Positions 737-30,420 of a DNA stretch of 64,000 nucleotides are shown piece by piece. The DNA is from an uncultured Lachnospiraceae bacterium. GTDB lineage: Bacteria; Bacillota; Clostridia; Lachnospirales; Lachnospiraceae. Every line of letters begins with the position of its first letter. Positions within the stretch are counted from its first letter, which is position 1. Position numbers and translations under genes: made by a program. The stretch lies in NCBI GenBank assembly GCA_965645705.1, contig CBFFWQ010000011.1, positions 1 through 64,000 on the forward strand. The letters are read 5' to 3'. A model generated the notes under the pieces. That model was not told where the DNA came from. It saw nothing but the letters and a program-made list of their open reading frames with translations, and searched no databases.

Positions 737-3259
737 TTAATCCTCGTCAACAGAAGGAGCAACAATAGAAGGGAGCTTTTCAACAAACTCCTCTAAAGAA
801 GTTCCATGAAGCAAACGGGTAGTTACATCAACAACAGACTCACCACTATCCGCAGCTAAAGCATAAGGACTCATCGCCTCCGCCAAAGTCTTCAATAACT
901 CGGCATTCGAAGTAGCAGTCATAGAGGCAATAAGGTCAGGACTAATCGCTTTCATTACATCCCGAATTGCTTCTGTTACAGATTCCCGTTTAGATACTTC
1001 AAGTTCTTCTAAAGCTTCTTTATATGCAATCTCTGCATCCTCGGACTTCTTCTTCCTCTTTAATTCTGCTTCTTGAATAGCATCCAGCACAGGCTGCAAA
1101 TTTTTCTCGGTTTCCTTTGCAGTCCTTATAGCAGTTTCTTCTAAACGCTTGATAACTTCTTCTTTTGCAATCTTTGCGGTAGCCAATGCTTTCTCCAACT
1201 CAAGTTCATGCTGTTTGTTATCATATTCAAGTTCAGCTTCACGTTCTTCTGCCTTAATCATCTGTTCCAGAATTTCGACTTCACGCTCTTTACTCGACCA
1301 TTCCAGCTGCCTACGAACCATAGTATACTGATGTCTATCAATCATATTCTGAATACTGTCTTCGACATGAATGCTCAATACATCAACATCGTGAACAAAC
1401 ATACCATTCTCACTAAAAAGCATTCCTGCTTTTCCACTCTCCATGTTTGTTACAATACCAGACTCTGGAATACCTAAAGCCACCCTTCTCACAATATCAG
1501 AAGCATTCTGATAAAAATCCTGAATTGTGTGTTTCTTTACTTCTCTCTTTAATAAAGAACGCTGCCTATCGCACAGATACTTCACATAGTTTTCTACATC
1601 AAACCATTTACTCTTAAACCTTTCTAGAAAATCAACACAGTAAGATACTTTCACATCTACATTAACAAAATCTTTCGTTTGCACATGAATGATATCAGCA
1701 ATCTTATTATTAGCCACACGCAAATAAACTGTCTTAAATAATTCATCTGTAGTTTTTGGTTTCCCTGTTGACAGTTCTAAAACTTCTAATGTCTGATCAT
1801 ATTCAAGCAGACAAGTCTGCGGACCACACACTACTTTTCTAGTACCATCCTTAGAAATTAGATTCACAGCATATCCCGTGAAAATTTCAATGGAAACAAC
1901 ACCAGCATACTTATTATCAATAAGAATTGTACGTGGTTCGCTGTAGGTATTCCCACGTGAAAATCCAGATTCTTCTACGACTGCATTTACCTGACCGTAG
2001 AAACCATTATCTAAAGGCTGAGCACTAAAATCATTAAACCTTTCAAAGGAACTCTGCTTAACTCTATTAGCACTTTTCATACTATTTCCAAGACTTCTAT
2101 TATACTCTAAAGCTTTTTCATTACCAGGAAACCATAATCTACACTGTTTATCTGTAAGCTTCCTTTTTACAACGACCTCATTCCTTGGGTCAGGCAAATA
2201 CATCGCTGGTCCTTTCACCATCTTTACATTGCCATTCATTCTATCAAGCACATAACGCCCTTCTCCAGCAGGAATAGCGATTGCATGATGCAATACCTTA
2301 TCTTCATACTTAATAATAGAATGTTCTGCCCTTGGATAATAAATCATCTGATCCTTACCTGTAATAAAAAGTTCTTCCCCAGTCTTGTAGCTCTTACCAG
2401 TATGCTCATCCACATAATCAGCAATAACCTTTAAATAAATCCCACTAATCTCAGACAATTCGATTGCCTTAAACTTATAGCCGCCAGTAGCTGTATTTTT
2501 TACGAAAATCTCATCAGGCTCTGGAAATACAACCGCTGAACCATGAATATACTTCTTTTCACCTTGCTCATTTTTTAGAATACAGTACTCTAACCTTTCC
2601 AGAGTAACAGCGTCCCTTACATACTTGTCACCTTTCCCACCAATAGGAAGAACTTCAATGCCTGTCGGCGGGATATAAAAAGGAACTTCTGTGCCTTTAA
2701 TTACAAGAATCTGTCCTACAGTATAACTAGCAGGAACTACCTCCGTAACAGAAGAATCTAAAGGAATGTCATCCTCACTACTCTCGTCTGCAACACCCTG
2801 AGTTTTCGGCAAGCCGACATCTGCTAAAGCATCTGCATCATAAACACGAGCCAATAAATACTGATTGGAATGCAACCTGTGACCTTGAATTACCTTAGCC
2901 ATCTGCCCTGGATACAATGCAAAAGAAATATTTCCCTTGATATTTACTTTCTTTCCAACCTGTAATTTCGGTGTTGTGTTTGGAGAATTCGGTGCTGGAT
3001 AGGAGCCATCTACAGTAGGATTCTTTAATGCAACATACCAATTCTCTGGTACTGCAACAAAAGTTGTAATAGCCGTGTCGAAGTTTGCTTCCTCAAACTT
3101 CTTTGTTTCTTCATTAAATACAACTAAAGCATCGGAATTGGACAGGCTCATTTTGCTGGAACCTACGACGCAGGAAATTAAACCTTTTGTCTTATCCAGC
3201 ACATAAGCGTACTCATTAGGATTTAATACCAAATCCCTTTCCCTTTGTAAATCTGACAT
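737..3259 (-). CDS. Major vault protein (MVP) homolog, about 840 aa: N-terminal vault repeats, SPFH-like shoulder, long cap-helix coiled coil and cap-ring
   Basis: Translation aligns by eye along its whole length with eukaryotic MVP. FALYPGQ matches FPLYPGE, TGEELFITG matches TGEEWLVT, VVCGPQTCLLEYDQTLEVLELSTGKPK matches [27 protein letters not shown], and a roughly 150-aa E/A/K-rich coiled coil is followed by AISPDLIASM...LLKTLAEAM, matching AIGPSTIRDL...LLQSLGL. Start trimmed to ATG at 3259 (MSDLQ), preceded by AAAGGTGG 9 nt upstream. Confidence 0.8.
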   Translation of the reverse strand: MSDLQRERDLVLNPNEYAYVLDKTKGLISCVVGSSKMSLSNSDALVVFNEETKKFEEANFDTAITTFVAVPENWYVALKNPTVDGSYPAPNSPNTTPKLQVGKKVNIKGNISFALYPGQMAKVIQGHRLHSNQYLLARVYDADALADVGLPKTQGVADESSEDDIPLDSSVTEVVPASYTVGQILVIKGTEVPFYIPPTGIEVLPIGGKGDKYVRDAVTLERLEYCILKNEQGEKKYIHGSAVVFPEPDEIFVKNTATGGYKFKAIELSEISGIYLKVIADYVDEHTGKSYKTGEELFITGKDQMIYYPRAEHSIIKYEDKVLHHAIAIPAGEGRYVLDRMNGNVKMVKGPAMYLPDPRNEVVVKRKLTDKQCRLWFPGNEKALEYNRSLGNSMKSANRVKQSSFERFNDFSAQPLDNGFYGQVNAVVEESGFSRGNTYSEPRTILIDNKYAGVVSIEIFTGYAVNLISKDGTRKVVCGPQTCLLEYDQTLEVLELSTGKPKTTDELFKTVYLRVANNKIADIIHVQTKDFVNVDVKVSYCVDFLERFKSKWFDVENYVKYLCDRQRSLLKREVKKHTIQDFYQNASDIVRRVALGIPESGIVTNMESGKAGMLFSENGMFVHDVDVLSIHVEDSIQNMIDRHQYTMVRRQLEWSSKEREVEILEQMIKAEEREAELEYDNKQHELELEKALATAKIAKEEVIKRLEETAIRTAKETEKNLQPVLDAIQEAELKRKKKSEDAEIAYKEALEELEVSKRESVTEAIRDVMKAISPDLIASMTATSNAELLKTLAEAMSPYALAADSGESVVDVTTRLLHGTSLEEFVEKLPSIVAPSVDED

Positions 3260-3936: not shown

Positions 3937-4290
3937 TATTTATATCTCGATTATTTACACTACCAACCTCTAATTTTAACATAAACCAACACCACTCCTA
4001 CAAAATAATTTTTATACATTAAGTATACTACTTCTAGCAATAAATTAATATTTAATGAAAAGAATGCTACCTTTTTAAGATAGTGTTCTTAATGTTCTAA
4101 AGGATTCAATAGAAATTGATTATGCTCACTAACTGTGAAATTTACCACTAATTAAAAAAACATATACCAACTACAACAAGTGATTTTCTGGCAAATCTAA
4201 AGGCTAATGGGTATAACGTGAGAAACAAAAATTTCCTGCTTCTTAAGAAAAGACTACAATATTATGTTACGTTGGAATTAATACCTTTCT

Positions 4291-4710
4291 TTAATTTTCT
4301 TTATAAATTATTTTTCTCATACCACTGCCACAGAAATCATGTGGTATCTTTTTGAAACCAAAAGTTTCGTAAAAAGATTCTTTTCCTTTTTCTGAAATAA
4401 GCTGGATACTTGACCTACCTCCGTCAGGCGTATGTTCTTCTACATAATCCAATAACATACTAATGATAGAAGTACCAATCTTTTGATTTTGAAAATCAGG
4501 GTGTACAATTACATCTACAATCATATAGTATTGTCCATCACCAAGCAGTCTACCCATAGCAATTGTTTTCTTATTTTCAACAACTGTGATTACATATAAA
4601 CTATTACTGATGGCAGTTTCTGCTTGTATTTTAGAAAAATTTTTCCAATTAACACTTTCTCTTAATCTATAATAATCTCCGTAAGATAAAATATTTTCTT
4701 TATACTCCAT
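4291..4710 (-). CDS. GNAT-family N-acetyltransferase
   Basis: VHPDFQNQKIGTSII matches the acetyl-CoA-binding motif A. Size 139 aa. AGAGGA SD 8 nt upstream of the ATG. Confidence 0.7.
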   Translation of the reverse strand: MEYKENILSYGDYYRLRESVNWKNFSKIQAETAISNSLYVITVVENKKTIAMGRLLGDGQYYMIVDVIVHPDFQNQKIGTSIISMLLDYVEEHTPDGGRSSIQLISEKGKESFYETFGFKKIPHDFCGSGMRKIIYKEN

Positions 4711-4857
4711 AAGAATTATCCTCTTATAAAATTAACAATAGTGTCTATGATTTTACTTTACTATGCCATATTGAAACACACTTATGTATGAAAAATAAAA
4801 TCCTTTTACATTTTAAGCTTAACCATAAATTAGCTTTACAAGAAATTTAATAACAAC

Positions 4858-4878
4858 AAAAGGATATTGTCTTTTCAG
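4858..4878 (-). terminator. Conserved hairpin+U-tract repeat, copy 3 (AAAAGGATATTGTCTTTTCAG)
   Basis: Sequence family match to 609 and 3442. Sits downstream of the Fic locus. Confidence 0.4.
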
Positions 4879-5050
4879 AATGACACCCTTAATGAACTAA
4901 ACTACTTGATCGATAAAATGACTAACTATTACACGAATGCATAGCTCTATATAAAGCTTCTAAACCAAAAAGCAAAAAAGGTGTGCAGTCTAAAATTTCA
5001 TTTTCAGAGTCAATGAAAGCTACATCATACCTTGCACGTTCTTTATCAAA

Positions 5051-5865
5051 TTAGGATGTGAAACTTACAGCTCTTATTTTATCCAAACCAGAATCAATTA
5101 AAAACTTATTCATAATCATTCTTCCAGTTCTACCATTACAATCAGAAAAAGGGTGTACATACTCAAAAGCAAAATGCAATAATAAAGCTTTCAACCATGC
5201 ATTCTCCGAAAAAATTGGCTTGTTGTAAAAATCAATAAAAGTTGTTATTGCAGCAGGAACCTGCTCAAATGGAATAGCCTCGTATTCACCAATATAAACA
5301 GGAGCTGTTCTCCATTTTTTACCCATAAGCCATCGCAAACACCATTTGCAAGAATTCGCCATAATTCTAAGAGAATTTCCTCATTAAATTTTCCAGTATA
5401 TAAGTTTAAATATTTGACAGCATCAAACCCATTTTTTATCATTGTTTCACTATATTCATTATTTTTATCAATAGGAGCACCATTTCTAAGTACGTGCGTC
5501 CTAGCTAAAGTAGTTTTTGCACCCTCTATTTTCATTGTATAAAAAATTTCTTCTTCTATCTTTACTGAATGCTCAACTACTTTAAGCTTATCATACTCTT
5601 TCTGTACTAACTCCTCTAAAGAAGCTATCTGACTATTATACAAAAATTTTAATGTTGTTACACCCAATTGCAATCTAGTATCAAAAAGATTTTTCTTTTG
5701 CTTTTCTAATTCCTCTTGTGTGCTTAATAAGCTTGTATAGGATACCCACGGAAAGTCTACTTCATCATCAAAATAAAGTCCTTTAGGATGTGTAAAAATA
5801 CTTATAGTTTTTGTTTCATCAATAGGAGGAGTTTTAAAAGCAAAAAATTTTTTAGCATCCAACAT
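5051..5865 (-). pseudogene. Fic (filamentation induced by cAMP) family protein, split by a frameshift into 5245..5865 (N-terminal part) and 5051..5362 (C-terminal part carrying the Fic motif)
   Basis: HPFSDCNGRTGR is the canonical Fic motif HPFx(D/E)GNGRxxR. The two ORFs overlap by 118 nt in different frames. Confidence 0.55.
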
Positions 5866-15322: not shown

Positions 15323-15602
15323 ATACACGATTAATTTAGAAAACTATAGCCTACAATACAGCCATGTGGAAACTCAAGACTATACGGTTCTAGCACAACC
15401 ATACTCATGGATTTCGATACCAATACGATATCTACAAAACAATTTACAAATCACGAAAAACTATTGAAGACAAAACAAAAAACAAAGAACAGAAAACCGA
15501 AAACAATTGACGAAAAACAAAAAATTATCCAAATGCACGAATAAGAACATCCTACTTGCCAAGCAAGTCTCATGCTTACACTGTACATTAATCACTATTC
15601 GG

Positions 15603-15677
15603 CTTTGAAAAAGGGATTTGAACCCTCGACCTTTTGATTAACCATCAAACGCTCCAACCAGACTGAGCTATTTCGAA
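15603..15677 (-). tRNA. tRNA-like gene with anticodon GUU (Asn) if the loop is read canonically. It has an atypical G at position 33 and a C-A mismatch in the acceptor stem.
   Basis: Reverse complement folds as acceptor TTCGAAA/TTTCAAA, D-arm GCTC-AGTCTGGTTG-GAGC, anticodon stem TTTGA/TCAAA with loop TGGTTAA, T-arm GAGGG-TTCAAAT-CCCTT. 75 nt; no encoded CCA. Confidence 0.5.
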
Positions 15678-16690: not shown

Positions 16691-16888
16691 CTAATCAACA
16701 GACTTTTCACCTAAATGAGCTAAAGTATCATGCAATGTCTGCTGAGCATTAACTTCCTTCGTTTCTACTGTATCGAAAATAGAAAATACAAATACGCAAA
16801 CAAAAATAACGAAAATGATAAGAATATCTAAAACTACCTTACTGCTTTTGCTACTTTTTTTCATAATAATCACCTCTAATGCTTTCAA
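16691..16888 (-). CDS. Small single-TM membrane protein
   Basis: Begins MKKSSKSSK followed by a 25-aa hydrophobic helix. Confidence 0.25.
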   Translation of the reverse strand: MKALEVIIMKKSSKSSKVVLDILIIFVIFVCVFVFSIFDTVETKEVNAQQTLHDTLAHLGEKSVD

Positions 16889-17798
16889 AAATTACGGAAC
16901 TTTCTAGATTGTGTATTCACAGTATGCGTGAAGTTAGGAAATTCTTGCAAGAAAGAGAAATTGCAGATCTTTTCGTAATAAAAATGTAATATGATTTCAA
17001 AACTAAAGATATCGAAGAGAAAATCTGAACAGAGTCGGAAAAACATAAATACTACACACAATAGATTACTGATATGATAAAAGACATGATTTTAATCCAT
17101 AGGTGAGAATCTAAAGAGAGTCTTTATACAAAATAGGGTAAGAATCTAAAGCCTATAATATGGTTTTAATCATAATACTTTATTCTCTTCCTATACAAGA
17201 ATAGTAATTACTGCGAACTATCCGTTACCTAAAGTAAAGGTAATGGGCTTCTAAGAGGCTAACAACTCTATTTAAGAAGTTTGATATTTATGTTTACATC
17301 TGATAAGTCAGACAATCCTTATTCTCAGAGAAGTGTCCACTTCTCATCTACCGTATAATATGTAGTACTTTCCATGAAGGAAAAGTATCCCAAGCACAAC
17401 GCTACTTTTTCTTGTAAGCTGTATGACTATTTTTTACAGAAGGCTAACTGACATTTAAAATTTTACGTACTGTACGGCTAGACAGTACAAACACCCATTT
17501 TAACTTGCCAAAGTACAATAGAATGTGCTTATATTTGTATCACGCCATATAATTCTCAGAAAAATAAATTTTTTGTAATGCCATTCAAGCCATGATCTAA
17601 AGACATGGCTTTCTGACTGAAACTTTATAAAATTAAAGAAATAAAATTTCCTGAAAATAATAATGTAAAGAAATGTATATCAACGATAAGATTTAAAGAT
17701 GATACAGAATAAAACTTACTTTTCTTCAAAGACAGTTTTGGAGTAAAATAAATCTAAAGAAGGGCATTAATTCCATTGGCTCTATTAGAATTTGTAAA

Positions 17799-18002
17799 TT
17801 ATTGAGATTCCTCTGTTATTTCCATTAAAAGATTAAGGTTATATGGTTCTTTTCCTCTACCTATAATTAGCTCCTGATACTTTTGCTCATATAAATCCTC
17901 ATCAAATTGTGTAAAAGTTTCATCAGATGCAACATGGGACTGTCTTTCACAACAGGAAATAAAATCAGTACCAAGAAGACAAGAAAGCTCGTCTGCTTTC
18001 AT
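17799..18002 (-). pseudogene. Fragment of the retropepsin-like protein family (LLGTDFISCCERQSHVASD matches LLGADFISCCQWQCNIASD of the 34190 ORF)
   Basis: Local similarity to the C-terminal half of 34190..34774. Lies in an otherwise ORF-poor region. Confidence 0.35.
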
Positions 18003-18423
18003 TTCATAGTGCGGTCGTGCACATCACTTTATACTAAGCGGTTATGTTTTTCGACCGCTAGTATAGTAACATTAAATTTATGATTACTATCATCTATTTC
18101 GTAGATCAATTCTTTTAACATAGTAGCACTTAGAATCATACTAAATGAAACTGCTGTATCACTATTAGATATCACAGGTAAACTTGGAAACATTAAATCA
18201 CCAAGTTCAAACATAATTCGATATAAATTTCTCGTAGCTATGCCACTGAAGCCTGTAAAAGAAACATTTTTTACCAATTTAGCATTAAATTTTTCTAATA
18301 ATATCCTTTCATTTGCTGTCCAAACTGGGAAATAAGCTACAGTATCTAAAAGAACTCTTAGCCCATCTTATAATTTTATTACAGGACGTTGTTGCGTAGC
18401 ATCCAAATTTAATGTAAATTGCT

Positions 18424-18660
18424 TCATCCATGTACCCTCACCATACCTAATTGAAAGACATTATCTGGAGTAGTATACACAGCATCAACCTCTCCTTCGA
18501 TTGCCATTACTGTCAATTCATCTTTTGATTTTTCCGTGTACTTTACAACAGCAGATTCTACAGAAACTACATCATCATTTACATACCTCACATCAACCAA
18601 ACCTACCCACCTGTCAGGGTACTTTTCCTGAATTTGTTTCCATGTTAATCTTTCTTCCAT
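18424..18660 (-). CDS. Hypothetical small protein
   Basis: ORF only. Confidence 0.25.
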   Translation of the reverse strand: MEERLTWKQIQEKYPDRWVGLVDVRYVNDDVVSVESAVVKYTEKSKDELTVMAIEGEVDAVYTTPDNVFQLGMVRVHG

Positions 18661-19280
18661 AAATTACCTCCATTCTAAATAGTACGTTATCGGCTTCTCA
18701 TTCATTCTATCACAGTATTGTATTAAATTCCATAAAAAAATTACAAATTATTTTTGCTTTCAAAATGAAAAGAGAATCCAATACAATTAGCGTGTATGCC
18801 TTTTAATGACTAAATTTAAAATAGAGGAACGTTGACTATTACTTTTATGTAAAATTACAGTCTAAACTTCGGATACCTTTTGAATACAAGAAAAAGAATT
18901 ATTAAAGGTACTGTTAGCTACATCAAAATCATATTTCTTATAGCAATCCAATAAAAGTATAGCGTATTGCTAAATGCAAATTATATTATTTTCAATTTGT
19001 ATAATGCTGTTTAAATTTTTATTTGATTGCTATAAAAGCAATGAAAAACTGACCTAAAGAGCCAAGCAGAATATCGCAATCATCACTACTCATACACAAT
19101 TCACTATAATGAATTTTTAAATACTTTTCATTCTTATGATTTTATCTATCAACTTTTCTACATCTTTAGAGTCGATTTTTACCCACTGAGGTGCAGACTT
19201 AAAGGATTCCACTTGATGATTTTGTAAAAATACCATACACTGTTTTGCATTATGCTGAATCATCATTGCGTTTTTCCAAT

Positions 19281-19460
19281 ACCAGAACCACTGACTACTC
19301 CCACAGGCAAACTTGTGGTGTTCTCACTACCAAGCATAGTTCGTAATCGTACATCATTTTCAGACGTTGGAAGTACAAATATAAATCTATTTGAGTGAAA
19401 ACTTTTATTATCAAGCAGTCCAACGACCACATATTCAGAATAAACGCATAAACGGAAACA
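19281..19460. repeat. Direct repeat copy A (about 150 bp, roughly 85% identical to 20262-20420). Has a conserved small hairpin with a compensatory substitution.
   Basis: By-eye alignment. Hairpins are CCACAGG...CTTGTGG (A) and CCACAGG...CTGTGG (B). Confidence 0.6.
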
Positions 19461-19630
19461 ATTGCACAAAAAGACATTTTTGTTTATTTTACTAAAATTG
19501 AGTTAAAGTTTAACTATAACTTAAATTACAATATTCCCTACCATATTATCGCAGAAATTTCACGAAAATTACCAAAAAAATATGTAATAATATGCTTCTA
19601 TTTTCAGCAAACATTTTTCGCAAAAATGCC

Positions 19631-19660
19631 TTGACATGGGCGTTGGTAGCAAGGTATAAT
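19631..19660 (+). promoter_or_regulatory. Consensus sigma-A-type promoter (TTGACA, 18 nt, TATAAT) driving the plus-strand small ORF
   Basis: TTGACA at 19631-19636, TATAAT at 19655-19660, then AGGGAGG SD 8 nt before the ATG at 19691. Confidence 0.6.
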
Positions 19661-19690
19661 GAAAACAGTTAATGAAGGGAGGCGACAATT

Positions 19691-19900
19691 ATGAAATCAA
19701 AAAGTTTTATCGTTGGAATTGTACTATTTTTATTAGAAGTTATAGATATAATAATTTTAAATTCTATATGCTTAGAGATTGCCGCTGGAACGACAAGCTT
19801 ACTCACCATCCTTGCATCAATGCTTTTATGGATTCCTGCCTTTGTTTTTATATACATCTCGGCAGTATACCTTATAAGAAAATTATTCTGTAATTGCTAA
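19691..19900 (+). CDS. Small (69 aa) two-TM hydrophobic protein (holin-like or type-I-toxin-like)
   Basis: Strong promoter and SD. Two predicted TM helices. Bracketed by the direct repeats. Confidence 0.5.
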   Translation: MKSKSFIVGIVLFLLEVIDIIILNSICLEIAAGTTSLLTILASMLLWIPAFVFIYISAVYLIRKLFCNC

Positions 19901-20261
19901 GCCCTAATGAAATGTACTAGAGTGACTACTGCTTTAAAAAATAAAATTCATAAAACAGTAGTCACTTTTGCACGCACTCATTGTTGTGCATTCATTCTGT
20001 AACTAATCTTCTATTCTCTATTTTATATGATAGTGATTGCATAAAAGCTTCGTTACAAAACTAAAGAAATAAAATTCCCTATAAGCAATAGACTTAACAT
20101 CACTTGGTGTTAATGCCTACCTTACAAGGAAATAAATTATTCTGTTGTACCAGAAAATAATCTTTAATTTAAAAAGTTTTTCTTGCGATCTTGAATAACA
20201 GAATCTAAAGGTTTATAAAACTTCTCCAACCATCTACAACAGAAAACATTTTATTTATGAA

Positions 20262-20420
20262 TTGACCACTCCCACAGGCTAGTCTGTGGTGTTCTCACTA
20301 CAAAGCGTAGCTCGTAATCGTACATCATTTTCAAATTTTGAAAATACAAGTGTAAATCTATTTTGAATGAAAACTTTCATTACCAAGCAGTCCAATAACC
20401 ACATTAACAGTAACTTTCTG
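20262..20420. repeat. Direct repeat copy B (partner of 19281-19460)
   Basis: See copy A. Confidence 0.6.
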
Positions 20421-20614
20421 CCTTTCGACAAAGAAGTATAGTCAACCTCCATGAATATTTAAGCTGTTTTAGATTATGTGTTTATTCTAATTGTTAATTA
20501 AAAGTGGCTTTCGCCCAATACGCAAGCATGAGAGTTTTTCTCCACGAAATTATAATAACAACCAAAAAACTCAAACTTTCTGCAATACTCATAAATTTAC
20601 TTTGTAGCAATTCC

Positions 20615-21364
20615 TTAAAAGGCATTTACTCCATGAGCCTTGCCATCCTGACTATTCGCTACAGCTCTGGTATAAGATTTATAATTGTATCGTGTTACAA
20701 TAGACTCTATCTCTGCCAATGAAGACTCTAGTGCTAACTGCACAAATCTAGGCATAGCATTGTTAAGGAAACCTTGCTCTAATGCATTCCTTGCACTTTC
20801 TGTACAGTAAGATAAATTATAACCTAAAGAATCAATAGTTTCCAGCATTACTTCAAACATATTCATAGGCATAGTGATGTTTAACAAGCTAATCTTTTCT
20901 TGAATTAAAGACTTTAAGACTGGACGCACTTCACACAACCTGCTACGCATTTCTCTTACTTCCTCACTTGATGGAATTACTATAGTAACAGATTTTGCAA
21001 ATAATACTTGAGACACATACAAAACTGCAGCAGGTATTAAACCATTGCTACCATCACAATTGAAAGTAACATCACGCTGCAAAAAAGTGTCAAAATCTTC
21101 CGCTACAGGTGCTTTGTTCACAGCACGTTGAGCTCTCTTTGGCATCTGTTCTCGACCAAAATCATCGTCAGAATCAACTCCTACATCATCTAAAGTATGA
21201 TCCCAATACAACTGCTGAATCTCACACTTCTTCACTAATTCTACAAACTGAGCATACGATACGAAGAATGGATCAGCGTTATCCATAACACCGCCCTCTT
21301 TAATAAAGAAACCTACTACCTGACCGTCTTCTTTTACAGTTCCAACTTCATGATACCTTTTCAT
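20615..21364 (-). CDS. Hypothetical protein ending ...DGKAHGVNAF (VNAF-tail set)
   Basis: ORF with the shared C-terminal motif. Confidence 0.4.
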   Translation of the reverse strand: MKRYHEVGTVKEDGQVVGFFIKEGGVMDNADPFFVSYAQFVELVKKCEIQQLYWDHTLDDVGVDSDDDFGREQMPKRAQRAVNKAPVAEDFDTFLQRDVTFNCDGSNGLIPAAVLYVSQVLFAKSVTIVIPSSEEVREMRSRLCEVRPVLKSLIQEKISLLNITMPMNMFEVMLETIDSLGYNLSYCTESARNALEQGFLNNAMPRFVQLALESSLAEIESIVTRYNYKSYTRAVANSQDGKAHGVNAF

Positions 21365-21448: not shown

Positions 21449-22030
21449 CTATAAAGGATTCTCTGAATCCTTTTGCACATAACACTGCTCGCACTTACGA
21501 ATCAATTTGTTTCCTTCAAAATCCAATTCTATGATATAAGGCATCCAATTAAGAATTCTTAAAAAATCCGCACAACCAAAGTTGTTATCATAAAAATTCA
21601 ATATTGAACTAAGAGCAGTACCATGCGTTCCAACAACAATTTCTTTCTCTGGATTCTCTAATAAAATCTTATGCAATACTTCTATACTACGTTTCTGAAC
21701 CATAGCAATAGACTCTCCACCATCTTCATGATAATCATGATTAGCCCATCGTTTTTGATACATTCCAGGCTTATGACCATTAGAACCCCCTTCTCGTTCT
21801 CTTAAATGTTCCCCTATGATAATCTCTTTTTCAAAAAATGCTGCAGTACTTGCAATAGTATCTATGCTCCGTCTATAAGGACTACAATAAAAAACATCTA
21901 CAGTTCTATCTTTGAAAAATTCAAGTACCATAGCAGAATCCTTTTTACCTTCTTCCGTCAATGGTCTTGTCCTTGTTTCTCTCCAAGAACATTCTGGTTG
22001 TGCATGACGCACAAAAAACACTTTTGTCAT
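21449..22030 (-). CDS. Histidine phosphatase superfamily (phosphoglycerate-mutase-like) protein
   Basis: VFFVRHAQ (RHG-type motif), CSPYRRSIDT and GTHGTAL. Start trimmed to ATG 22030 with GGAGG SD. Confidence 0.65.
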   Translation of the reverse strand: MTKVFFVRHAQPECSWRETRTRPLTEEGKKDSAMVLEFFKDRTVDVFYCSPYRRSIDTIASTAAFFEKEIIIGEHLREREGGSNGHKPGMYQKRWANHDYHEDGGESIAMVQKRSIEVLHKILLENPEKEIVVGTHGTALSSILNFYDNNFGCADFLRILNWMPYIIELDFEGNKLIRKCEQCYVQKDSENPL

Positions 22031-22144
22031 AGCATCCTCCAAAACTACCTATAAAAGCAAAAGCCACGACAAATGAAATCCCCCAATGAATACACTGAAA
22101 AAATTTCATTTGTCGTGGCTTCTACCACAAAAACTGCCTAAAAA

Positions 22145-23725: not shown

Positions 23726-24322
23726 TTAATTTAGTTCTCTCTTTGTCATATTATTAAATTCTGTCAATGCCAGAATATCTTCAAACTTCCAATCTGCACA
23801 TTCATCGTAAAAAGCTTGTTCCTTTCGCTTCTTAAAAATACGAAATGGTTTACGACTTGAGTTATCATAGATATGACAAACATCACAAATCTTTACAAGA
23901 ACTTTTATCAAGTCTAATGCTTTATCGTATCTTGCAATTATCTTTTCATCAGGTACATCATGACCGCCAGACGCAACCCTTGATTTCACACGCAAAACAT
24001 TAATCATAGGGTCTACTGTCAAAATATAGTAACAACGCACAAAGTATCCTTTTTCTTTTGCCTTTTCTAACAACTTCAAATTTCGTTCCGTGGATAATAC
24101 TGTTTCAAAACAAAACTCATACATTTGCTCAACGTGATTTTCTCGTTGTTCTTCTGCAAGCTGAGCTGCTTCTAAATCAGAACACTTTAAATTCTTCTTA
24201 ATTTCATCAGCATTAATATAATCCATCATTGAAGGCTTTAATAATTCAGTGAATGTGCTTTTCCCAGAACCATTAGGACCAGCAAAAACAACAATTTCAG
24301 GTTTTTTTTGCAATCCGTTCAC
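23726..24322 (-). CDS. Zeta-toxin-like / COG4185 P-loop kinase
   Basis: VVFAGPNGSGKSTF Walker A. Size and layout resemble zeta/PezT-family kinases. Confidence 0.5.
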   Translation of the reverse strand: MNGLQKKPEIVVFAGPNGSGKSTFTELLKPSMMDYINADEIKKNLKCSDLEAAQLAEEQRENHVEQMYEFCFETVLSTERNLKLLEKAKEKGYFVRCYYILTVDPMINVLRVKSRVASGGHDVPDEKIIARYDKALDLIKVLVKICDVCHIYDNSSRKPFRIFKKRKEQAFYDECADWKFEDILALTEFNNMTKRELN

Positions 24323-28889: not shown

Positions 28890-30420
28890 CCAAATCTAAA
28901 GTTTGCACACTGGACAAACTTTGATACAACTGTCTCATGTCCATCTACTCTATCTTTGCCTACTCTGATTCTGATACCAGTACCATTTGCCCACAACCAT
29001 AAAGTACGATCATTCTTCCCTTCAAGCAGAAGCACACTCTTCTTGTTTCTTTTATTCACGTTGGCTTGTCACACTCTGCAATACCTCTCAGGAACTGTCA
29101 AAAATTAACTTTTAAATTTGAGGTTTGATAACATAGTTCCATTTTCCAAGTGTTTCACAGGGAAAAATGTTAATTCTAGCTAATTCGTCATCCGATATCT
29201 TGTGCCCGGTTTCATATACTTTCTCATCAAGCTGGCAGGTAATGGACAATCCTTTTTCTGTTGTTGTATTTGATATTAAACTGATTATTGTTTCAATATC
29301 AATCAATGGATGCCCCTGCCAATTTTTTGAAATATAACAGAACATCCTGTGTTCTATTTTGTTCCATTTTGATGTGCCGGGCGGATAATGGGAAACCATG
29401 ATCTCAAGTCCTGTATCATTGACCAACTGCTGTAATTCGTATTTCCAGTTGCGGCTATCGGAACCGTTGCTCCCACTACCATCACACGTGATATAAATTC
29501 GTTTTGCCGCAGGAAATGTATTTTTTCCAACAGCATTCCACCAACACGAAATACTGGTTACCGCAAATTCCGATGTGTCATGGCTGGTTCCGAGGTTCAC
29601 AAAACCAGTATTGTTATTGAGGACATAGACCCCGTAAGGTGCCACCTTTCCTAATTCAGGTATCGGGAAATCATGATCCAGTACTTTGCGAGGATTTTTT
29701 TCTTCTCTGTATTCTGCACCAGCGTTCTTGAAATTGCCAATGTTCTCTTTTTTCTTTGTGTCAACAGAAATAACTGGCTCCCCGTTCTCCAGATACTCGT
29801 GGGCAGTATGGTCAATCAATTCAAACTGTTTATTACGGTCTGGACTCGGTATGCCGACTTGTTCCATTTTTTGGTTCACCTGTTTGCTGTAGCCCATTTC
29901 TGCCAAAAGCTGTGATATCTTTTCATGACTTACCGTTATGGAATAATCCTCTTCGAGGATATCCCTGATTTGGCGGAGGCTGAGAGTAGATGCAACCCAG
30001 TGCAGTTCTCTGGAAGGATCGCCATATGTGCTGCCATCAATTATTTTTTCGATGGTCTCTGTGATGTTTGGATAGGTCTCCGTGATTGGTTTACGACCAG
30101 CACCTTCTTTGCGGATTCTGCTATCCGAAATAACCTCATCATTCTCGGAATCAGCCTTTCCAACAGTCAGGGTTGGATATGAGATGCCGGTTAATTCAAC
30201 AATGTGAGCCTTTCCACCGCTGCCATATACATCCGCAGCTTTACTCAAAAGGATCCGCTTACTTTTTTCATCTGATAACTTATTTATTAGCGAAACAAGT
30301 TCGTCAAATGAAGCTATATTTATAATATTCATGGCATACTGCTCCTTATCTAATCTATAAAAAGAGTATACTATAATATGCCATGATTTAAAAGTTATTT
30401 ATTGACAATTCCTCAGTAGC
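28890..30420 (-). mobile_element. ISAzo13-family insertion sequence, about 1.5 kb, visibly higher GC than its flanks
   Basis: Contains the transposase ORF. The compositional shift starts near 28890 and ends near 30400. Terminal IRs not resolved by eye. Confidence 0.55.
29112..30332 (-). CDS. ISAzo13-family DDE transposase
   Basis: 406 aa. Matches the Rhodopirellula-type DDE transposase layout (YPPGTSKWNKIEHRMF and other motifs). Confidence 0.75.
   Translation of the reverse strand: MNIINIASFDELVSLINKLSDEKSKRILLSKAADVYGSGGKAHIVELTGISYPTLTVGKADSENDEVISDSRIRKEGAGRKPITETYPNITETIEKIIDGSTYGDPSRELHWVASTLSLRQIRDILEEDYSITVSHEKISQLLAEMGYSKQVNQKMEQVGIPSPDRNKQFELIDHTAHEYLENGEPVISVDTKKKENIGNFKNAGAEYREEKNPRKVLDHDFPIPELGKVAPYGVYVLNNNTGFVNLGTSHDTSEFAVTSISCWWNAVGKNTFPAAKRIYITCDGSGSNGSDSRNWKYELQQLVNDTGLEIMVSHYPPGTSKWNKIEHRMFCYISKNWQGHPLIDIETIISLISNTTTEKGLSITCQLDEKVYETGHKISDDELARINIFPCETLGKWNYVIKPQI

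Follow-up and report, generated by a model that had tools for sequence, protein, structure and literature searches.

Introduction

Insertion sequences of the IS605 type, such as IS608 and ISDra2, are built in the order left end (LE), tnpA, tnpB and right end (RE), and encode a transposase of the Y1_Tnp type (TnpA) together with an accessory protein that carries a RuvC D-E-D triad (TnpB). Each end has a subterminal hairpin that resembles the one at the other end, and terminal inverted repeats are absent; in IS608 the boundary is about 19 nt from the LE hairpin on its 5' side and about 10 nt from the RE hairpin on its 3' side. The ωRNA (reRNA) of TnpB is a multi-helix scaffold encoded in the right end on the nuclease strand; it overlaps the 3' end of tnpB and ends at the transposon boundary, so that its guide comes from the flanking DNA. 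Small genes in phages have other described counterparts: morons, which bring their own σ70 promoter, Shine-Dalgarno (SD) sequence and terminator, and type I toxin-antitoxin loci (e.g., fst/RNAII and txpA/RatA), which encode a small hydrophobic peptide behind a strong promoter. For cassettes that recombine between repeats, the 'promoter-early stem-loop' (PeSL) repeats of T4-type phages serve as comparison. Miniature PATE-like derivatives of IS200/IS605 elements encode ωRNAs that are acted on in trans (Meers et al., PMC10055086).

Here we describe a locus in a window of 64,000 nt (64 kb, the whole stretch of DNA that was analysed), which belongs to the ~275-kb genome of a gut phage and in which two direct repeats bracket a small gene, ORF69. 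With a probability of roughly 0.85, the locus is an ordinary transposon scar, in which relics of an insertion sequence (a solo RE and an LE-RE mini-element) flank an unrelated phage orphan gene; this corrects the toxin-antitoxin or cassette architecture that a preliminary description had seen in the same arrangement. The locus documents a 3.7-kb insertion hotspot in the phage and leads to a family of the IS605 type that seems not to have been catalogued so far; it comprises TnpA, a 537-aa TnpB-like nuclease without zinc finger and a ~200-nt ωRNA-like RNA, is abundant in Firmicutes of the human gut and also enters their phages.

Repeat copies in the window

The direct repeats were confirmed at 19292-19432 and 20263-20404, with 85-88% identity and a single 1-nt indel; over 19291-19445 and 20262-20455 the identity is about 84-85%. 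They lie about 970 bp apart in direct orientation with ORF69 between them, and are read on the minus strand of the window, which is the strand of the phage genes. That there are two copies stands as first described; their extents do not, as the copy at the higher coordinates (copy B) is longer than claimed and the other (copy A) is a truncated version.

Copy B (20262..20455, minus strand) is a full-length RE module that matches our covariance model R1 over the full model length (220 bits, E = 6e-51). Its ~200 nt (20455->20262) form an ωRNA-like structured scaffold with the 3' end ...CCUGUGGGAGUGGUCAA, and align end to end with copies found 3' of a TnpB-like gene in the loci L104, L116 and L117. 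Further out, to 20559, follows the left end of the same insertion sequence (20480..20559, minus strand), for which the LE profile match runs from 20555 to 20499 (E = 1.2e-9). It is the single LE detected by this profile in the window and aligns with the LEs of L100, L101, L104 and L117, while both its subterminal hairpin and its promoter region are decayed. Copy B and its LE make up a protein-less LE-RE mini-element of ~300 nt (20559->20262); remnants of TnpA and TnpB were sought in the LE-RE interval and are not present, and the window as a whole yielded no TnpA and no TnpB-like remnant. No target-site duplication was seen around copy B.

Copy A (19291..19445, minus strand; 172 bits, E = 3e-39 with model R1) is a 5'-truncated solo RE module, which lacks the first ~45 positions of the model and has no LE; near it, neither an LE nor a TnpB-like remnant was found. 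Its terminus lies 24 nt upstream of the ATG of a 49-aa ORF. Copy B resembles the PATE elements in being a ~300-nt LE-RE unit without protein genes that keeps the whole ωRNA-like module, but differs in its decayed LE hairpin and its phage genome setting, whereas copy A, 5'-truncated and without LE, is not a PATE. Because its LE hairpin is decayed, copy B is probably no longer mobilisable.

The repeat core occurs exactly twice in the 64 kb (0 expected). A profile search for further copies found no third one within the window. As the searches for repeat copies and for a TnpB-like gene covered 64 kb of the ~275-kb phage genome, additional copies or a TnpB-like gene could lie elsewhere in it. A 24-nt inverted repeat (19437-19460 / 20465-20488) was considered as a pair of transposon termini and rejected, being no stronger than the other chance pairs of the region and having its right arm within the IS left-end region.

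Phage lineages and the accessory island

The two IS relics lie together with ORF69 and a number of small ORFs in an accessory island of 3.7 kb (16883..20614), the limits of which are given by the junction in the relative L034; this phage is devoid of the whole island, with window position 20615 joined directly to 16882. In a sister lineage (L022) the island is mosaic, as seen from the blocks of the L022-vs-window alignment. The sister lineage has only copy B and has still kept ORF69, and the block common to both lineages contains copy B and ORF69, not copy A. It has deleted the stretch between two copies of GCAGAAAGTT, which lie in the window at 20583-20574 and 20421-20412 (segment 20412..20583, minus strand, in the same alignment), a loss that includes the LE and the RE's 5' portion.

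Copies A and B each diverge by 11.6% from the bacterial copy L081, versus 16.4% from each other (bootstrap ~0.95), and share one derived site only. On this sequence evidence, they are not each other's closest relatives, and each is closer to a Lachnospiraceae copy. Contigs of ~100% identical strains that span the locus all show the intact arrangement, and none is deleted between the repeats; the first 20 loci are such strains and carry no comparative signal. Scans of IMG/VR with a 17-mer and a two-block pattern gave chance matches only, and no relatives came up when IMG/VR was searched with the flanking proteins.

These data bear on the proposal of a small mobile cassette, in which the repeats would be functional recombination sites that excise ORF69 or shuffle it between phage genomes, as in the PeSL comparison. 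Direct repeats ~970 bp apart around a self-contained gene, in a mosaic accessory island, are what such a cassette would look like, and the truncated 5' edge of copy A lies within a few bases of the endpoint of homology with the sister lineage. This coincidence of copy edge and homology breakpoint is not explained by the IS reading and leaves room for a role in recombination. However, the repeats are not closest relatives and have just the one derived site in common, only two copies exist within the 64 kb, the sister lineage holds ORF69 with copy B alone while copy A falls outside the common block, and the strain contigs spanning the locus show no deletion between the repeats. We therefore consider recombination sites extremely improbable. 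What remains of the cassette proposal is that the repeats derive from a mobile element; as the one-repeat sister lineage indicates, they do not form the termini of a cassette carrying ORF69.

The intact insertion sequence in gut Firmicutes

Hundreds of contexts in gut Firmicutes contain this ~200-nt element, which is specific neither to the phage nor to ORF69 and is present outside phage in Lachnospiraceae MAGs. In the loci L104-L106, L117 and L118 it begins ~11 nt past the stop of a gene for a 537-aa protein, which in turn comes after a TnpA gene of the Y1_Tnp type (126 bits); in L100-L102 and L091, C-terminal remnants of the 537-aa gene lie before the element. The TnpA of L117 (927-1340) is a full-length Y1_Tnp match (125.9 bits), that of L105 matches Y1_Tnp and NF033573, and that of L118 was found by tblastn. 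Because intact copies adjoin the stop codon of the TnpB-like gene and this follows an IS200-type TnpA gene, the repeats are the right ends of an insertion sequence of the IS200/IS605 family, which is common in gut Firmicutes and also enters phages. The preliminary description had named a widespread intergenic repeat without relation to the ORF as a finding that would speak against its proposal; across genomes, though not within the 64 kb of this one, the repeat is such an element.

The intact element measures ~2.5-2.6 kb and comprises an LE with subterminal hairpin, a 73-aa ORF, TnpA, the 537-aa TnpB-like gene and the ~200-nt RE. Its LE hairpin (CCCATAGG-CTTG-CCTATGGG) resembles the RE hairpin (CCCACGGG-CTTG-CCCGTGGG), the RE hairpins are cross-matched by the LE profile, and terminal inverted repeats are absent. 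Conservation of the RE ends sharply after ...GGGAGTAGTCAG in 8 different contexts, and the LE starts with GTTATAAATT in 4 contexts plus the window. The resulting distances between boundary and hairpin are ~21 nt (LE) and 9 nt (RE), close to those of IS608. The sequences 5' of the LE (GGGT, ATGT, AGCT, GGTT and AGAG) show no clear TAM motif from 5 sites.

The element thus agrees with the IS605 type in the LE, tnpA, tnpB-like, RE order of its intact copies, in its Y1_Tnp protein, in the similar subterminal hairpins of ends without terminal inverted repeats, in an accessory protein with the RuvC D-E-D triad, and in a structured 3' RNA on the same strand that stops at the transposon boundary. It differs in that the nuclease is long (537 aa), has SQYDH instead of SQxCxxCG and escapes the TnpB models of Pfam and NCBIfam, that the RNA lies wholly downstream of the stop and does not extend into the 3' end of tnpB, that an extra 73-aa ORF precedes tnpA, and that the window copies are gene-less. 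An assignment of the 73-aa first ORF as Arc was dropped, with no confirmation from Pfam. The bacterial copy L081 is of the gene-less LE-RE type, like copy B. Contigs frequently break at the element, as expected of a multi-copy sequence. A look-up of contig P0076 gave only the phage's own copy B.

The 537-aa TnpB-like protein

In three plasmids, homologs of the 537-aa family come after tnpA genes that are annotated as IS200/IS605, and one homolog carries the NCBI annotation 'RNA-guided endonuclease TnpB family'. The gut proteins have no sequence match in Pfam, NCBIfam or the PDB; the TnpB assignment rests on the family profile and on distant homologs. The latter match Cas12f1-like_TNB with 31 bits (cut-off 26.3), and OrfB_IS605 and HTH_OrfB_IS605 below the cut-off. 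The family profile matches PDB entry 9j09 (Cas12n) with E = 2e-7 in an alignment spanning the RuvC motifs, and a triad of D277, E387 and D482, invariant in the 7-sequence family alignment, aligns to the GVDLG and RD motifs of that entry. The zinc finger (CxxC...CxxC) was sought in the family and no invariant cysteine was found, the corresponding motif being SQYDH...QRD. Judged by these comparisons, the 537-aa protein is probably a divergent, zinc-finger-less RuvC nuclease of the TnpB family, and is called TnpB-like here.

Structure of the right-end RNA

The repeats were originally thought to encode a structured RNA, and this is borne out by covariation once bacterial copies are included. The evidence first offered for it does not hold: the change in a small hairpin (CCACAGG/CTTGTGG vs CCACAGG/CTGTGG) is not compensatory, as the CCACAGG arm is identical in both copies and the other arm has a 1-nt change on the loop side. 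The copy of the sister phage (L022B) has a mismatch in the same hairpin, its 3' hairpin being damaged, and it takes the bacterial copies to reveal true compensatory changes in that hairpin (A-U to G-C).

The consensus structure on the gene strand has 41 pairs, with 97.4% of the cells paired versus at most 47% in slid controls, and the changes that support the structure are consistent with the minus strand and not with the plus strand. Double changes were found at 6 pairs in 3 helices, a number reached by 8 of 500 shuffles, and the covariation score was exceeded in none of 500 shuffles, covariation being measured on 10 related sequences with an effective number of 1.38. Single-sequence folds of the repeats are no better than those of shuffles (z -0.35 to -1.3), and the structure is visible only with homologs. 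TnpB-like genes of 31-36% identity are also followed, on their own strand, by a counterpart that matches the covariance model: in C. difficile and B. cereus it adjoins the stop codon, in Mycoplasmatota it comes ~330 nt further downstream. None of 4227 Rfam covariance models reached its gathering score, and at E <= 10 Rfam gave no relevant match over 19100-20600.

By its position, strand and covariation-supported structure, the right-end RNA appears to be an ωRNA-like scaffold. It corresponds to the ωRNA (reRNA) of TnpB in being encoded in the right end on the nuclease strand, in forming a multi-helix scaffold with covariation, in having its 3' end at the transposon boundary, from which it follows that a guide would come from the flanking DNA, and in co-occurring with the nuclease family across distant taxa. 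It departs from it in matching no Rfam family and overlapping no ORF, and its binding, processing and guide function are putative. By analogy, the RNA is presumably bound and used by the TnpB-like protein. The repeats may be transcribed in the phage, although the LE promoter of copy B is decayed. The 3' hairpin of the RE could equally act as a DNA hairpin for TnpA. A 6S RNA, a riboswitch and a cis-regulatory leader were discarded, with no Rfam match and with the element facing the 3' end of the next gene in L091 and L100.

ORF69 and its signals

ORF69 (19691..19900, plus strand) exists as described, a 69-aa ORF with two hydrophobic segments, and is open in both phage lineages. Its σ70-type promoter (19631..19660, plus strand; TTGACA-18-TATAAT) scores 12/12 and is the sole perfect match in the window (0.11 expected), with both hexamers kept in the sister lineage. 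The SD sequence AGGGAGG (19676-19682) was likewise confirmed, 8 nt before the ATG. On the 3' side, a long hairpin (19914..19973; inverted repeat I3 with 23-nt arms, 83% complementary), which is 96% conserved between the lineages and precedes a short plus-strand T-run, is the likely terminator of the ORF69 transcript. The products of the two lineages share 84% aa identity; substitutions by codon position number 8/2/8, and the replacements are conservative hydrophobic ones. The same codon-position pattern disfavours an antisense 62-aa ORF inside ORF69. A conserved long ncRNA in the spacer 19986-20262 was also rejected: in the sister lineage its predicted long stem is disrupted and no compensatory change restores it, and few sites underlie the difference in conservation.

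No homologs of ORF69 were found outside these phages or near any bacterial repeat copy, and searches with PADLOC and PHROG gave no match. ORF69 is a real, conserved phage orphan gene, and it is independent of the repeats. Its orientation, opposite to the flanking phage genes and within the accessory island, its absence from a related phage, and its own σ70 promoter, SD and terminator are shared with phage morons; the want of homologs sets it apart from them.

The preliminary description regarded ORF69 as the small membrane toxin of a type I toxin-antitoxin locus, and the repeats or their transcripts as antisense or trans-acting sRNAs. The gene is short and hydrophobic, has a perfect σ70 promoter, a strong SD and a long hairpin at its 3' end, and lies antisense to phage transcription, which makes a read-through antisense RNA plausible; the peptide, the promoter and the likely convergent transcription at the 3' end are also features of fst/RNAII and txpA/RatA. 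But these repeats, as IS right ends, recur in hundreds of contexts without ORF69, no ORF69 homolog accompanies the bacterial copies or occurs outside these phages, and the sister lineage keeps the gene with a single repeat. Flanking sRNAs are contradicted by the duplex energies with the ORF69 mRNA, which for both strands of both repeats are about those of shuffles (z -0.6 to +0.1) and reveal no excess complementarity. In contrast to the known loci, no antisense promoter was identified for ORF69 in the window and no dedicated sRNA, and the flanking repeats belong to a transposon and are not complementary to the mRNA. With PADLOC and PHROG also without a match, we judge a toxin-antitoxin function of this kind highly unlikely.

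Proposed origin of the locus

According to the transposon-scar reading, one IS200/IS605-type family, frequent in human-gut Firmicutes, would have landed twice in the variable island of the phage. The repeat is its RE, which on the transposon coding strand is predicted to fold into a conserved multi-helix RNA ending exactly at the boundary, and the guide of this ωRNA-like scaffold would come from the DNA next to it. Copy B would be an internally deleted (PATE-like) LE-RE mini-element and copy A a 5'-truncated solo right end; the two probably came in or diverged independently, in the same orientation, within the 3.7-kb island. Because there is no transposase or nuclease gene nearby, both are expected to be immobile scars unless the host provides TnpA and TnpB in trans. 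ORF69 would be a separate, phage-specific, moron-like unit with host-type promoter, strong SD and terminator, and its product is predicted to be a small hydrophobic membrane peptide.

A more active role of the relics can be imagined, in which selection keeps the ωRNA-like modules in the phage, which loads them into a TnpB-like nuclease of the host, so as to drive the mini-element into co-infecting phages without it, to cut a competitor or to decoy the host nuclease. Copy B is 95% conserved between the lineages and the neighbouring coding DNA ~91%, one helix pair changes in a compensatory way (U·G in copy B to U-A in L022B), copy A and L022B, truncated independently, both keep the core from about the same model position, and the ωRNAs encoded by PATEs must be used in trans (PMC10055086). 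On the other hand, the conservation difference depends on few sites, the 3' hairpin of L022B is damaged, copy B has a decayed LE promoter, the 64-kb window of the phage showed no TnpB-like gene, and decayed IS ends are common and usually inert. Retention under selection is therefore, in our estimate, very improbable, and the same low odds apply to the mechanism it would involve, namely transcription of the modules by read-through on the phage gene strand and loading in trans into the zinc-finger-less TnpB-like nuclease. If it were true, guides derived from the flanks would target related phage genomes without the insertion, resulting in a homing or exclusion drive, or else the modules would titrate the host nuclease; either way, a phage would be exploiting orphan transposon guide RNAs.

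Annotation of the element

A protein-coding repeat (an ORF of 55-68 aa with a 4-nt overlap with the next ORF) was rejected, as synonymous changes account for only 0/11, 2/14 and 1/10 of the altered codons. There is no third-position bias, copy B is frameshifted, and the start of the copy-B ORF sits in the segment deleted in the sister lineage. Translation of this pseudo-ORF nevertheless retrieves 427 protein clusters, with Catenibacterium and Butyrivibrio among them. Gene callers systematically mis-call an ORF across the RNA, these 427 clusters being spurious 'hypothetical protein' entries, and covariance model R1 could serve both for annotation of the element and for clearing such false genes from annotations.

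Classification of the repeats and their copy number

The locus is made up of two relics of an IS200/IS605-family transposon, each a right-end (RE) module resembling an ωRNA and one of them with a left end (LE), beside an unrelated orphan gene; relics and gene share a hypervariable island in the genome of a large gut phage. Elements of this kind are already known, but this particular family appears to be uncatalogued, because the zinc-finger-less nuclease of its gut members has no match in Pfam or NCBIfam and its RNA none in Rfam.

The preliminary description was largely accurate as to the two direct repeats and the small plus-strand ORF with its promoter and Shine-Dalgarno (SD) sequence, but not as to a compensatory change in a small hairpin, one arm of which is identical in both copies, the other being changed toward the loop. 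The repeats align at 85% identity (19292-19392 vs 20263-20363) and 88% identity (19390-19432 vs 20362-20404) with one 1-nt indel, and a 33-nt core pattern has exactly two occurrences across the 64 kb (0 expected). Neither a profile HMM nor a covariance model detected a third copy in the window. Copies A (19445->19291) and B (20455->20262) diverge by 16.4%, each differs by 11.6% from the Lachnospiraceae copy L081 (bootstrap ~0.95), and they have one derived site in common. Because both are closer to L081, and a sister phage lineage carries the ORF and copy B but lacks copy A, the copies are not a pair. A cassette bounded by the repeats, as had been proposed, is not supported. Their shared orientation would presumably fit the insertion strand bias of IS200/IS605 elements.

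Transposon ends

An LE profile detects a second short homology on the gene strand (window minus; 20555->20499), 5' of copy B; in other loci with the element (L100, L101, L104, L117, L091, L118, L119) its counterpart lies upstream of the transposon genes. The LE segment forms a nested hairpin, whose inner stem-loop (CCCATAGG-CTTG-CCTATGGG) is similar to the 3'-end hairpin of the repeat (CCCACGGG-CTTG-CCCGTGGG), and the LE profile cross-matches the RE hairpins. The element ends have sharp boundaries in many contexts and lack terminal inverted repeats; together with the matching subterminal hairpins this is the signature of IS200/IS605. The LE hairpin lies about 21 nt from the boundary and the RE hairpin 9 nt, values which we take to fit the geometry of IS608.

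Given the LE homology upstream, copy B is an internally deleted LE-RE mini-element (20559->20262, ~300 nt), which the bacterial copy L081 resembles. Copy A consists of a right end alone, truncated on the 5' side; the window holds one LE only, and no trace of a TnpB-like gene remnant was found in it. The truncated edge of copy A coincides within a few bases with the breakpoint of homology to the sister lineage. In alignment A8 (columns ~32-45), copy A and the copy-B orthologue of sister locus L022, which were truncated independently, start at nearly equal positions of the RNA model with the core complete in both; this may be a coincidence or a hint to a functional RNA start.

Parent transposon and its nuclease

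In five other loci (L104-L106, L117, L118) the element starts ~11 nt past the stop codon of a gene for a 537-aa protein, located directly 3' of the gene for a Y1 transposase of IS200 type (126 bits to Y1_Tnp in L117); C-terminal remnants of the 537-aa gene lie 5' of the element in L100-L102 and L091. The protein has no sequence match in Pfam, NCBIfam or PDB, and its family lacks zinc-finger cysteines. Homologs with 31-36% identity occur in plasmids of Bacillus, Clostridium, Pontibacillus, Mycoplasmatota and Acidithiobacillus; directly upstream of three of them is an annotated IS200/IS605 tnpA, one homolog is annotated as a TnpB-family RNA-guided endonuclease, and the homologs give weak to threshold matches to OrfB_IS605, HTH_OrfB_IS605 and Cas12f1-like_TNB. 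In the family alignment D277, E387 and D482 are invariant, and the structure of a miniature type V-N Cas12n (PDB 9j09; PMC12216341) is matched by the family profile at E = 2e-7, in an alignment that spans the GxDxG, SQ and RD motifs. On these grounds we conclude from sequence that the 537-aa protein is a putative divergent TnpB-family nuclease.

TnpB-like homologs (31-32% identity) are also present at ~26.9-28.2 kb on ~181-kb (pXO1-sized) Bacillus anthracis plasmids; on B. anthracis and B. cereus plasmids they are labelled 'hypothetical protein' only. On the B. cereus plasmid L112 the gene (1405-2901) is followed by a weak match to the RNA model (2918-3123). Arc-TnpA-TnpB IS605 elements are described in the literature; an Arc identity of the 73-aa first ORF of the intact element was not confirmed with Pfam.

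RNA structure

On the gene strand, 10 distinct copies support a structure of 41 pairs, with 97.4% of cells paired (vs at most 47% with slid partners). Both-sided changes (C-G/G-C, U-A/C-G, A-U/G-C) affect six pairs in three helices, a number reached by 8 of 500 shuffles, and the covariation score of 0.178 (0.129 in shuffles) was reached by none of 500. G·U pairs are numerous and would be mismatches on the opposite strand, and the consensus energy of five sequences is -28.4 kcal/mol on the gene strand vs -17.7 kcal/mol on the other. R1, the covariance model of the repeat RNA, finds a counterpart on the same strand downstream of distant TnpB-like genes, directly after the stop codon in C. difficile (E = 2.5e-5) and B. 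cereus (E = 2e-4) and ~330 nt downstream on a Mycoplasmatota plasmid (E = 2.7e-8); Rfam yielded no match. In its position, strand and boundary, and in occurring together with the nuclease, the repeat RNA matches the ωRNA scaffold of TnpB; it would probably be bound by the nuclease and used as a guide. PATE-like mini-elements 'often encode ωRNAs' for use in trans (Meers et al., PMC10055086). A reading in which a host nuclease works in trans with these orphan guide RNAs for the benefit of the phage is very improbable.

Distribution and spurious genes

Scans with degenerate patterns identified genuine copies in four contigs, two from Lachnospiraceae MAGs and two from metagenomes, with homology spanning ~190-200 nt of the window minus strand; the repeat is thus not phage-specific. 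In three copies the element is spanned by an ORF (MVVGLLGNKSFHSNRF...ENDVRLR..LGSEN). A protein-coding reading was ruled out by the synonymous share of changed codons (0/11, 2/14 and 1/10), with no third-position bias, and by a frameshift in copy B. With the translation as bait, 427 clusters of proteins came up, Catenibacterium and Butyrivibrio among them; the contigs reach 772 kb. Since the element has varying neighbors (glgB, hflX, genes for a kinase and a glucosidase) and contigs frequently terminate at it, it behaves as a multi-copy mobile sequence. Gene callers regularly predict 'hypothetical proteins' of 47-103 aa across the RNA element (in the window at 19263-19430 and 20279-20452, minus strand), at times fused to adjacent genes, which amounts to a systematic family of false genes in public databases. 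Two unrelated fecal phage contigs hold full-length and TnpB-only copies of this IS, which therefore enters phage DNA.

The small ORF

The 69-aa ORF (19691-19900, plus strand) is open in both phage lineages. Its TTGACA-18-TATAAT promoter (12/12) is the sole perfect match in the window (0.11 expected), the SD sequence AGGGAGG lies 8 nt 5' of the ATG, and a long hairpin (19914-19973) follows; promoter and SD are thus as first described. The sister lineage keeps the promoter hexamers, the terminator and a weaker SD. Between lineages the protein is 84% identical; the 18 substitutions are distributed 8/2/8 over the codon positions, and the replacements are conservative and hydrophobic, which favors the plus-strand frame over an antisense 62-aa ORF. 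Searches of 5.8 billion clustered proteins and of 1.84 billion representatives found no homologs outside the two lineages, and Pfam, PHROG and PADLOC gave no match.

The layout had been likened to a type I toxin-antitoxin locus. The repeats are transposon ends, and neither of them, on either strand, pairs with the ORF mRNA better than shuffled sequence; this proposal is not supported. The ORF is read as an orphan gene, independent and moron-like, for a putative small membrane peptide, which may act as a toxin, in a holin-like way or in exclusion.

The non-coding spacer between its terminator and copy B (19986-20145) is 95% identical between lineages (ORF, 91%) and also more conserved than adjacent coding DNA, a difference of a few sites; no conserved structure or ORF was found in it by the two-lineage comparison.

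Phage genome and accessory island

The window is a piece of a large phage-like genome. Its G+C content is low (~34%), nearly all large ORFs are on the minus strand, and PHROG matches include a nicotinamide phosphoribosyltransferase and a clamp loader, the latter related to versions from jumbo phages and human-fecal phage contigs. About 20 contigs (up to 275 kb) are ~100% identical over the locus and uninformative for comparison; several end within the repeats. The sister lineage (L022-L033; contigs up to 285 kb) has 84-91% nucleotide identity to the window and retains a 249-aa gene, the copy-B orthologue and, together with promoter and terminator, the small ORF. Copy A is absent from this lineage, whose genes differ left of ~19441. 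The lineage also lacks 20421-20574. Two copies of the 10-bp direct repeat GCAGAAAGTT (20574-20583 and 20412-20421, minus strand) flank exactly the ~163 nt lost, which indicates a microhomology-mediated deletion that removed the LE and the 5' part of the RE.

In the more distant relative L034, position 20615 abuts 16882 directly (island site at L034 2088-2093), so the whole 3.7-kb segment 16883-20614 between two conserved genes is accessory. In the L022 lineage (L022 7622-10697) it is partly replaced by DDE_Tnp_1 fragments and other ORFs; the island looks like a hotspot of insertion and exchange.

Elsewhere, a 406-aa DDE_Tnp_ISAZ013 transposase (phrog_34518; 29112-30332, minus) is shared with some otherwise identical strains (such as L003 and L005), and in L002 and L004 other genes, including an RNA-ligase/AAA_33 gene, lie upstream at this region, i.e., strains vary around the IS. 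The 285-kb sister contig L023 carries a 411-aa RRXRR+HNH (IscB-like) gene (3950-5185, minus) where L022 has a different 371-aa gene, which suggests that other RNA-guided-nuclease mobile elements colonize these phages too. A His_Phos_1 histidine-phosphatase gene (21449-22042, minus) is missing in L034, where 22043 and 21383 are nearly adjacent, a further case of an indel between conserved genes. The sole tRNA of the window is a tRNA-Asn (GTT; 15601-15677, minus). A 198-aa Zeta-toxin/AAA_33-like P-loop kinase (23726-24322, minus), with weak PADLOC ATPase matches, is kept in all relatives.
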